Shown here piece after piece: positions 21,945 through 30,416 of a DNA stretch of 32,000 bases. The first letter of the stretch is position 1. Each line of letters starts with the position of its first letter. This stretch comes from Promethearchaeota archaeon (lineage in GTDB: Archaea; Asgardarchaeota; Lokiarchaeia; Sigyniarchaeales; SOKP01). The translations under genes and the position numbers were made by a program. The DNA lies in contig JAUWGH010000004.1 of the NCBI GenBank assembly GCA_030606485.1, forward strand, positions 120,001 to 152,000. Reading direction: 5' to 3'. Under the pieces are notes generated by a model. The model saw only the letters and a list, made by a program, of their open reading frames with translations. It made no database searches and had not been told where the DNA came from.

Positions 21945-22472
21945 ATTATTTCCGGTTATATATAATTACTTTATTGGAATAAAAAAGAGGTGAATCTATA
22001 AAAATTGTTTCCTAATTTTAAGATTGTTATTTTTTATTACTGGTTTAAAAAAATATTAGTAAAATTTCAATAAGATGAGGGAAAAAAAACAACTCTACCA
22101 GTGATTTCATTTTCATTATCCTTTTTAAAATAGAAATAGAATCTACCAAAATTTGTTTTATATATTGTCTTAAAATTTTTATGAATATGAGTTGTAAATA
22201 TCTTTTCAATTATTTTCTCATCCCAACACATAATATTAATGTTTTCATTTAAAAATTAAATAATAGAATAATACCTAAATATTAGGTAGATTTGAATTTA
22301 AATTCCAAAAAAATAAATTTGAAAATTTCTATATCTATATCATTAAAAAATAATTTATATGACGAGTTTAGTGTAAATCAATTATTATATCACTATTATA
22401 TATGTTATTTATTTAAAAATTGAAAAATTTAGATAAAAATTTAATTACAAAAAATAGGAGTGTGATTATATA

Positions 22473-23722
22473 ATTACAGATAATGGTCATTATACTTCTA
22501 ATTTCACTACGAAATACCATATCATAGCAAATTATAAAGTAAATGGAGTGGTTGAAAAGAGCGATATTGTCGGTGCCATTTTTGGGCAAAGATAAATAGC
22601 CACTTCGGTCATATCGCCTAAACCGAAGGTCTTTTATCGGATTTAGACTTAAGGGATTTACAAAAAAGTGGGAGAATAGGAAGAATTGAGGTCGAATTAA
22701 CGACCGAAGAGGGAATATCTAAAGGAACAATAATTATTCCTTCAAGTCTAACAAGAAAAGAGACCGTTTTATTGGCAGCGACAATAGAAACCGTGAGTCG
22801 AGTAGGTCCTTGTTCCGCACAAATTGACCTAGAAGATATCAAAGACATTCGCGAAGACAAAAGAAAACAAATTATCAAACGAGCAACGGAATTATTAAAA
22901 AAATGGGATGAGAATAGTCCCGAACCTAGGGAAATTGAAGAACAAATTTCTCAAGATATAAGACTTAGTGAAATTAAAAAATGGGGGCCTGAAAATTTAC
23001 CTGCAGGTCCTAATGTTGATATTAGCCCAGATCTCATAATAGTTGAAGGAAGAGCAGACGTCTTAAATTTAATGCGTATAGACATCAAAAATGCTATTGC
23101 AGTGGAAGGCACTCAAATACCTAAGTCAATAATTGAATTAATTCGTAATAAAAGCCCAATTACTGCTTTTTTAGATGGAGACCGGGGAGGCACAATAATC
23201 TTAAATGAATTATTACAAGTGGCACACCTTGATTATGTTGCAAGAGCTCCTGATGGGCTTGAAGTTGAAGAATTAACAAGAAAACAGATGGTTAAAGGTC
23301 TTCAAAATAAGAGACCAGTTTCAGAGATAGTTAATAATAAAAATTTATCAGTAGATATACCGCGTAAGGGGAAAACAGTAATTGAAAAAAAAATAAAAGA
23401 TTCGAAGAATAAATATAAAAATATTTTAAAAATATTGAAGCTCAATAAAGGGTCAAAAATTGCTGAGTATATTTCTAACTCTAAAATAACAAAAAAAGCA
23501 ATTGGAATTGACTCAGAGGAAAATATTCTTTTTGAATTAGATACTTCGGAAGTATTTGATAATTTGAGTGAATTTTCCACTATTAAATACTTAATATTGG
23601 ATGGTATTTTATCTAAAAGACTAATTTCCTTGGCAATAAAAATGAAAATAGATGCAATCATTTGCGTTGGAACAGAAGAAAATTTAAAAATTCCAAGACA
23701 AATAAAAGTTATAAAAGTTTAA
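22473..23722 (+). CDS. dnaG: Archaeal DnaG (TOPRIM, exosome-associated), two exons: 22473-22589 and 22622-23722, about 405 aa after splicing
   Basis: Exon 1 TTKYHIIANYKVNGVVEKSDIVGAIFGQ; exon 2 TEGLLSDLDLRDLQKSGRIGRIEV...IETVSRVGPC...IIVEGRADV...FLDGDRGG. Start inferred at ATT 22473 (or ATA 22470) downstream of AGGAGTG. Confidence 0.92.
22590..22621 (+). other. Candidate 32-nt BHB (tRNA-type) intron in the dnaG mRNA
   Basis: Insert AGATAAATAGCCACTTCGGTCATATCGCCTAA; central helix GGGC 22584-87 with GCCT 22616-19; AAA bulges 22588-90 and 22620-22; inner helix GATA/TATC. Cutting after the second base of each bulge restores CAA|ACC. Confidence 0.8.
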
Positions 23723-24135
23723 TAATTCACTTTAACATCAATGGGTAATCCTCTTATAAGAGAATTTGAAATTATGCAATATTCTCTAAAAATTTCAATG
23801 CATTTATCAAATTTTTTCTTGTTTTTTCCTTCAAAATCGATAATATTTAATTCTACACTTACATTAACTATTTCTAAATGATTATAAGGTTTTCTATGAG
23901 TCATTTTACCATCTACAACAATATTTAGTTCTTTTATTTCAAAATTATTTTTTTCTAAACAAAAAATAAAACTAGAGCCAAGGCATCCACCTATTCCAAC
24001 TAAAATATATTCAACGGGACTTGGTCCTCGATCATTTCCCTTAAAAGAGCGAGGCTCATCTATTAATATTTTTTTAAAGTGTCTAACCTCCGCTCTAAAT
24101 CCAAAATTATCAATCCAATTTATATTAACTTTCAT
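23719..24135 (-). CDS. OsmC/Ohr family protein
   Basis: ILIDEPRSFKGNDRGPSPVEYILVGIGGCLGS and second Cys in EYCIISNSL; start set to the ATG at 24135 because the longer ORF overlaps secE. Confidence 0.85.
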   Translation of the reverse strand: MKVNINWIDNFGFRAEVRHFKKILIDEPRSFKGNDRGPSPVEYILVGIGGCLGSSFIFCLEKNNFEIKELNIVVDGKMTHRKPYNHLEIVNVSVELNIIDFEGKNKKKFDKCIEIFREYCIISNSLIRGLPIDVKVNY

Positions 24136-30109: not shown

Positions 30110-30180
30110 GCGTTCGTTGTATAGAGGTAGTATTCAGGCCTTCCAAGCCTGTGGCCCGGGTTCGATTCCCGGCGGGCGCA
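30110..30180 (+). tRNA. tRNA-Gly (anticodon TCC)
   Basis: Acceptor GCGTTCG/CGGGCGC (two G-U pairs), anticodon arm CAGGC-CTTCCAA-GCCTG, T arm CCGGG-TTCGATT-CCCGG, discriminator A; CCA not encoded. Confidence 0.95.
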
Positions 30181-30313: not shown

Positions 30314-30416
30314 GCCAAGGTGGCGTAGCCCGGTAATGCTGGAGACTCCCAGTGTTGGGTATGAACGCACCAGACTGAAGATCTGGGTATCGCGAGTTCA
30401 AATCTCGTCCTTGGCA
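30314..30416 (+). tRNA. tRNA-Phe (anticodon GAA) with a D-loop intron
   Basis: Acceptor GCCAAGG/CCTTGGC, D stem GCGT/ACGC, anticodon arm CCAGA-CTGAAGA-TCTGG, T arm GCGAG-TTCAAAT-CTCGT; 29 extra nt in the D loop. Confidence 0.95.
30334..30362 (+). other. 29-nt tRNA intron at a non-canonical D-loop position (after the conserved GG)
   Basis: Central helix GCCC/GGGT, bulges GG^T and AT^G, 8-bp inner helix AATGCTGG/CCAGTGTT; excision gives the normal D loop AGCCCGGGA. Confidence 0.88.

Follow-up and report, generated by a model that had tools for sequence, protein, structure and literature searches.

Evidence for a tRNA-type (bulge-helix-bulge) intron in the dnaG pre-mRNA of a Promethearchaeia archaeon

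In a Promethearchaeia archaeon (Asgard, Loki type), the one dnaG gene contains a 32-nt insert that is very probably a tRNA-type (bulge-helix-bulge, BHB) intron of the pre-mRNA. The insert occupies positions 22590-22621 (+ strand) of the window, the whole 32,000-nt stretch that was analysed, which corresponds to G000:C2:120001-152000 in a genome of 3.75 Mb (13 contigs, 100% complete, 29% GC). This explanation is preferred because of the split itself, the conservation of the insert, its covariation with the exon, a spliced form in RNA data and the presence of the enzyme genes. A BHB intron in the dnaG of an Asgard-like archaeon had been proposed by an earlier sequence-only reading, and both parts of that proposal hold. 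The nearest named relatives by DnaG are almost all Promethearchaeota or Promethearchaeia MAGs, i.e. Asgard archaea of the Loki type.

In the proposed mechanism, GGGC in exon 1 would pair with GCCU at the 3' end of the intron to form a 4-bp helix. This helix would be bordered by two 3-nt AAA bulges on opposite strands, together with a hairpin in the intron. A heteromeric (alpha-beta type) EndA would cut after the second base of each bulge and RtcB would ligate the exons, giving ...GAIFGQ-TEGLL... and a DnaG of about 405 aa. The predicted spliced junction is GGGCAA joined to ACCGAAGG, and the predicted junction-spanning peptide is IVGAIFGQTEGLLSDLDLR. Unspliced RNA, with an intron opening AGA-UAA, would yield only a peptide of about 40 aa.

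The split dnaG gene and its start

Exon 1 of dnaG (22473-22589, + strand) comprises 39 codons from a probable ATT start and ends ...GGT GCC ATT TTT GGG CAA, with its last base at 22589. The frame restarts at 22622 with ACC GAA GGT CTT TTA on the same strand. Exon 2 (22622-23722, + strand) translates as TEGLLSDLDLR... and is free of stops for 366 codons, followed by the stop codon; the Toprim domain is located in this exon. The insert lies at a codon boundary, between GAIFGQ and TEGLL, and opens with AGA TAA. The unspliced frame therefore reads ...VGAIFGQR and stops two codons into the insert.

The archaeal DnaG equivalog profile NF003108 (NCBIfam) is matched on both sides of the insert (E = 2.9e-112). 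Exon 1 covers profile positions 1-26 and exon 2 covers 27-418, so the break falls exactly between the neighbouring positions 26 and 27. Jointly the exons cover 1-418 of 419 positions, and exon 2 reaches 376 bits where the cut-off is 300. The sequence, the translations and the profile thus agree with the earlier claims that a conserved DnaG motif is split at a codon boundary by 32 nt and that the unspliced message encodes a peptide of about 40 aa. A six-frame search of the 100%-complete genome gave no second dnaG, with this gene as the one match.

The start of dnaG appears to be non-canonical. The exon 1 frame opens after a TAG at 22455-57, and there is no ATG, GTG or TTG start upstream of the conserved region of exon 1. 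A Shine-Dalgarno-like sequence, GGAGTGTGAT, can be read at 22457-22466 (+ strand) and may serve as a ribosome-binding site; a GGAGTGAT-like block upstream of dnaG is conserved in relatives. About 7-10 nt after GGAGTGTGAT stands ATA ATT ACA, of which ATT-ACA is also conserved. The apparent GTG of the relatives sits within the Shine-Dalgarno-like GGAGTGAT. At 10 loci or more this GTG is in another frame or has a stop after it, whereas every relative compared offers the ATT of ATT-ACA. Translation of dnaG therefore probably starts at an AUU codon, 22473-75, as judged by comparison of the upstream sequences.

The bulge-helix-bulge element and its covariation in relatives

The junctions of the insert can be folded as a BHB element with all of the parts that had been described for it. 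The 5' strand of the central 4-bp helix is GGGC (22584-22587, + strand), which consists of a Gly codon and the first base of a Gln codon, and the 3' strand is GCCU (22616-22619, + strand), which lies inside the intron. The 5' bulge AAA (22588-22590, + strand) has a predicted cut between 22589 and 22590, and the 3' bulge AAA (22620-22622, + strand) has a predicted cut between 22621 and 22622; both bulges are based on the sequence and the RNA joint. The inner helix is formed by GAUA (22591-22594, + strand) and UAUC (22612-22615, + strand), the latter placed with the alignment covariation analysis. A cUUCGg tetraloop hairpin in the intron (22603-22608, + strand) is read from the sequence and the constrained fold. 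Cutting after the second base of each bulge excises 22590-22621 and restores GAIFGQ-TEGLL. The A runs leave four equivalent placements of the junction, from 22587 joined to 22620 up to 22590 joined to 22623. The BHB rule selects 22589 joined to 22622, and the exact cut positions are thus predicted within a 3-nt ambiguity.

The outer, exon-exon helix is relaxed, in line with the imperfection that had been pointed out from the sequence. Its 5' strand AUUUUU (22578-22583, + strand) pairs with GAAGGU (22625-22630, + strand; helix 1 of the covariation analysis) when AAACC is left unpaired. It can be drawn either with two U.C mismatches followed by 3 bp, or with 6 bp and a 5-nt 3' bulge. In the alignment 88% of the cells of this helix are paired, mostly fixed by Ile-Phe and Glu-Gly codons. 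Since these pairs are largely set by conserved codons, they carry little evidential weight. In terms of the strict hBHBh' form, the inner helix has at least 3 bp in nearly all sequences, and the outer helix is mismatched or needs the 5-nt bulge and is codon-fixed.

The BHB conformer has an energy of -11.5 kcal/mol in a constrained in silico fold, compared to -18.9 kcal/mol for the free minimum-energy fold. The latter pairs intron CUUCGGU with its exact complement in exon 2, ACCGAAG, over 7 bp (22603-22628), and in this model the helix would mask the 3' splice site. Since the BHB is not the minimum-energy fold, the case from one sequence alone is suggestive but open. The CUUCGGU/ACCGAAG helix was rejected as a conserved structure, with 70% of its cells paired and 49-151 of 500 shuffles reaching the observed covariation. 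By sequence comparison it may be either a by-product or a lineage-specific competitor.

Evidence beyond the single sequence comes from related dnaG genes. Exon 2 was used to search 40 related genomes, and an alignment of N-terminal halves of DnaG to search a public genome collection; 110 loci resulted in all. An insert of 29-43 nt is present at the same boundary, between GQ and TE, in 47 of 109 resolved loci (32 distinct sequences), and the other 62 read straight through. A 37-nt Loki-type form of the intron was confirmed. The central helix is paired at four of four positions in all 32 distinct introns. The third pair involves the wobble base of the Gly codon, which changes together with its partner in the intron. 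The codon GGG occurs with GCCU or GUCU, and GGA with GUCU, GUUC or GUUU; both GGC and GGU occur with GGCU. For the corresponding column pair 17-59 of the MAFFT alignment (A2), the counts are 17 C-G, 5 A-U, 5 U-G, 3 G-C and 2 G-U.

Taken over the whole structure, the covariation score is 0.198, compared with 0.127 in shuffles, and none of 500 shuffles reaches 0.198. Slid controls score 0.055 or less. When the 3' partners are slid by one to three columns, pairing drops from 89% to 33-56%. With 32 of 32 central helices paired, five pair types and 0 of 500 shuffles, the BHB element is beyond chance. The first three pairs of the inner helix form in 88-100% of the homologous introns. Among the homologues the 5' bulge varies (AAA, AAU, AGA or AAG), and 30 of the 32 have AAA as the 3' bulge. 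The same-site inserts with covarying helices that the sequence-only reading had named as a check are thus present, and their BHB core covaries.

The homologous introns also share an early stop. All 32 distinct introns have an in-frame stop within the first three codons, mostly as AGA-UAA, and only two have a length divisible by three. Since every intron stops the frame early, the unspliced message is always truncated. The early stop may have been selected to end the translation of unspliced RNA at once. Alternatively, it may simply follow from an A-rich bulge plus the GAU of the inner helix.

A stop directly after the 5' junction, followed by a hairpin, would also suit ribosomes that hop over the 32 nt without any RNA splicing, in the manner of phage T4 gene 60, as a stop codon and a hairpin are features of the gene 60 gap as well. 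However, dnaG has no matching take-off and landing codons, with CAA or GGG ahead of the gap and UAA ahead of ACC. Nor does such bypassing predict that the Gly wobble base covaries with the 3' end of the intron, and the RNA contig described below physically lacks the 32 nt. Bypassing is therefore barely credible, and splicing of a BHB intron is the preferred reading.

Other classes of insert were also considered. A group I or group II intron would have a ribozyme core of hundreds of nucleotides, whereas this insert has 32 nt. No Rfam family matches the dnaG insert at the gathering score. A direct repeat of the target-duplication type, exon TTCGGCC versus intron ATCGGCT, was rejected; the likeness reflects a GGCC palindrome, and the strands GGGC/GCCU and GGAC/GUCU are complementary, not repeated.

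DNA, RNA and enzyme evidence for splicing

The stretch was found in metagenome runs from 11 studies, and contigs were aligned to 22300-23800. Contigs from X6 and X12, DNA runs of two studies that are not the probable source, continue through the insert with no gap. Since independent DNA contigs keep the insert, the misassembly against which the earlier reading had cautioned is excluded. A related explanation is that the 32 nt are an inactivating insertion in a dnaG pseudogene, or an artefact of assembly. The stop two codons into the unspliced frame and an exon 1 without a canonical start codon would suit this explanation. It is nevertheless extremely improbable, as the same insert occurs in independent assemblies and in the DNA runs of other studies, and more than 30 genomes, down to 57% identity, have both exons intact and conserved. 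In addition, the gene is the only dnaG match in its genome, the ends of the insert covary with the exon, and an RNA contig lacks the insert.

This contig is 530 nt long, has a word depth of 34 and belongs to metatranscriptome run X19. It joins 22587 to 22620 and skips exactly 32 nt; three letters at the joint fit either side, and the BHB-predicted joint of 22589 to 22622 is included. The spliced junction that had been predicted is thereby seen in RNA data, and the removal is precise, with the same 32 nt kept in the DNA contigs. Over 440 positions the contig has 7 differences from the window; it derives from a strain about 98% identical. The support is direct but thin, consisting of one assembled contig from one run. 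At one end of the contig a piece of 25 nt is inverted, and an RNA library can include DNA. Run X20 is labelled RNA-Seq but is probably DNA; its unspliced contig (depth 2.6) counts neither way. In the RNA runs X24 and X29-X36, next to none of the sampled window words are present.

The remaining serious doubt is that the X19 contig is DNA from a very close intronless strain, in which case the BHB element would be real and its splicing unproven. Intronless alleles do occur within genera of the same family, so precise loss takes place, and the seven differences together with the possible carry-over of DNA into RNA libraries leave room for such a strain. Still, the intron is kept in five of five genomes of the genus, the most distant of which has 72% protein identity. 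Of the six variants listed for the contig, four to five match G003 and G002, two genomes of this genus with the identical intron in their DNA. The coverage of the contig is also local (about 22498-23059), unlike that of whole-stretch contaminating DNA. An intronless DNA origin is therefore very unlikely. Even if it were correct, a conserved single-copy gene with a covarying BHB element would still need to have the insert removed.

The enzymes expected for splicing of a BHB intron are encoded in the genome. Two genes of the tRNA-intron endonuclease family (PF01974) are above the Pfam cut-off. The EndA alpha gene (G000:C10:66737-67336) encodes 199 aa with the catalytic Tyr, His and Lys present, and a beta-like subunit gene (G000:C10:670247-670867) encodes 206 aa in which the catalytic His is absent. 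By sequence, the two look like an alpha subunit that is catalytic and a beta subunit that is structural. There is a single RtcB gene, around G000:C6:118950-120257. EndA and RtcB would be the enzymes that process the dnaG mRNA. The Asgard EndA is reported to be an (alpha-beta)2 enzyme with an L1 loop, a feature associated with broad specificity and with cleavage of relaxed BHB motifs (Kaneta et al., PMC5829648). An enzyme of this type fits the weak outer helix of dnaG.

A structure-only scan of the genome for open reading frames split by BHB elements was run with the real pairing rule and with a decoy pairing rule. A scan for further frameshifted genes with BHB junctions had been suggested by the earlier reading. 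The present one recovers dnaG and a MoxR-like gene, but its 3830 candidates compare with 3866 under the decoy rule, and it has no specificity in a 29% GC genome. Consequently, no count of mRNA introns can be taken from it.

The MoxR-like gene, which encodes an AAA+ ATPase, has a 31-nt mRNA BHB intron at G000:C1:76174-76204 (+ strand; locus L144:674-704). This intron splits the Walker A motif between GEPG and TGKT. Its central helix is formed by CUGG/CCAG, its bulges are AAA and AGC, and its inner stem has 10 bp. The start of exon 2 in this gene falls at position 10 of the Pfam AAA profile.

The window also holds a weak tRNA-like match at 30348-30416 (+ strand), which scores 31.2 bits with RF00005 against a gathering score of 29. 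It has acceptor-stem mismatches, is not called by ARAGORN and lies 170 nt after a normal tRNA-Gly(UCC) (30110-30180). It may be an unusual or interrupted tRNA.

Distribution of the intron and comparison with known systems

The distribution of the intron was followed with a covariance model (R1) built from alignment A2. In the window's own genome the dnaG site is the sole match. Among 151 genomes of the order, 53 have full-length matches of 69-83 nt with more than 52 bits, and in most of the others the matches are 40 nt and consist of the two exon flanks only. Besides the genus of the window, some other genera have the intron throughout, while in two large genera some members have it and others do not. 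Sampling across the phylum showed inserts at the same boundary, with unrelated interiors, in two further Asgard families. The first insert, of 32 nt, has GGCC/GGUU and bulges of AAA; the second, of 31 nt, has one mismatch besides 3 bp in its helix.

In a tree of 99 distinct DnaG proteins, the intron is present in every early-branching lineage of the family, with the intronless forms at nested positions. The intron label changes at least 10 times on this tree, and at least 5 of the changes are forced by well-supported branches. The introns of the family resemble one another (AGAUAA...AUCGGCUAA), which argues for one old intron. The family therefore probably inherited the intron from its ancestor and lost it precisely on repeated occasions; as the tree is in principle unrooted, this direction is deduced from the branching of the sequences.

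Several MAG records, including L036 (DATKTW010000002.1), L047, L057 and L082, have a DnaG that is 70-76% identical to the Loki-type protein of the window. Their labels are Nanopelagicaceae bacterium, Hodarchaeota, Thorarchaeota, Odinarchaeota and Hermodarchaeota. Their DnaG proteins fall inside the Promethearchaeia family in the tree, and the labels or the binning look unreliable.

A broader reading is that the dnaG intron is one of a genome-wide set of EndA-spliced Asgard mRNA introns, that it is old and that it gates translation. Here old would mean that it goes back at least to the ancestor of this family, and other Asgard families also have inserts at the site. As a whole, this reading is rather unlikely. 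If true, full-length DnaG would be made only from spliced RNA. The gate would consist of a weak AUU start, an immediate intron stop and the competing intron/exon-2 helix, which could hide the 3' splice site.

The preferred reading is the narrower one, that this is in all likelihood an mRNA BHB intron of the cbf5 type, with strong comparative support and first support from RNA. On this reading, dnaG is a second, unrelated archaeal core gene that needs such splicing, with cbf5 the sole other in the searchable literature, and the splicing occurs in the archaeal group closest to eukaryotes. Endonuclease/ligase splicing of mRNA would be part of normal gene expression in these archaea. In Asgard genomes, dnaG and genes like it will come out of standard gene callers as truncated or broken. 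With a 32-nt intron, known enzymes and natural intronless alleles, dnaG is a tractable case. It would be useful for studying the gain, retention and loss of introns in protein genes among relatives of the eukaryotic ancestor.

The cbf5 pre-mRNA of Crenarchaeota was reportedly found to contain a BHB intron by Watanabe in 2002, with further work by Yoshinari in 2006. The intron lies in the coding sequence of cbf5 (Yokobori 2009, PMC2738675). The 5' UTR of HVO_1309 in Haloferax volcanii also has a BHB intron, for which cbf5 was given as the only other archaeal mRNA case (Schwarz 2020, PMC7714728). Abundant tRNA introns, but no mRNA introns, are reported for Asgard genomes in PMC11291895. The searchable literature yielded no description of an intron in dnaG or of BHB introns in Asgard mRNAs.

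The dnaG and cbf5 introns are both short BHB introns within a coding sequence, occur in lineages with a hetero-oligomeric EndA and have a patchy distribution with gain and loss. They differ in the gene and the phylum (Asgard/Promethearchaeota for dnaG) and in that the dnaG intron lies 39 codons from the start. Another difference is that a Gly codon provides the 5' strand of the helix in dnaG, and the wobble base of this codon covaries with the intron. The evidence for splicing of dnaG is also of another kind than RT-PCR or an enzyme assay, namely one metatranscriptome contig.

The BHB introns of archaeal pre-tRNA and pre-rRNA share with dnaG the 4-bp helix and the two opposite 3-nt bulges. They also share the cut after the second bulge base and the EndA and RtcB pathway, which for dnaG would be the predicted route. 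Unlike in these RNAs, the host of the dnaG intron is an mRNA, the outer helix is relaxed and coding, and there is an early in-frame stop. HVO_1309 resembles dnaG in that an mRNA is the substrate of EndA (presumptively so for dnaG). Its intron, however, is in an untranslated leader, so no reading frame is interrupted.

A more distant comparison is the unconventional cytoplasmic splicing of HAC1/XBP1 in eukaryotes, in which the endonuclease is Ire1 and the reaction is regulated by stress. That system differs from dnaG in the use of Ire1 at small stem-loops, which are another RNA motif, and in its stress regulation. A protein endonuclease, two cuts and a tRNA ligase are common to both systems (for dnaG as predicted), and in both the removal of a short intron changes the reading frame; RtcB has also been connected with HAC1 splicing (cited in PMC5829648).
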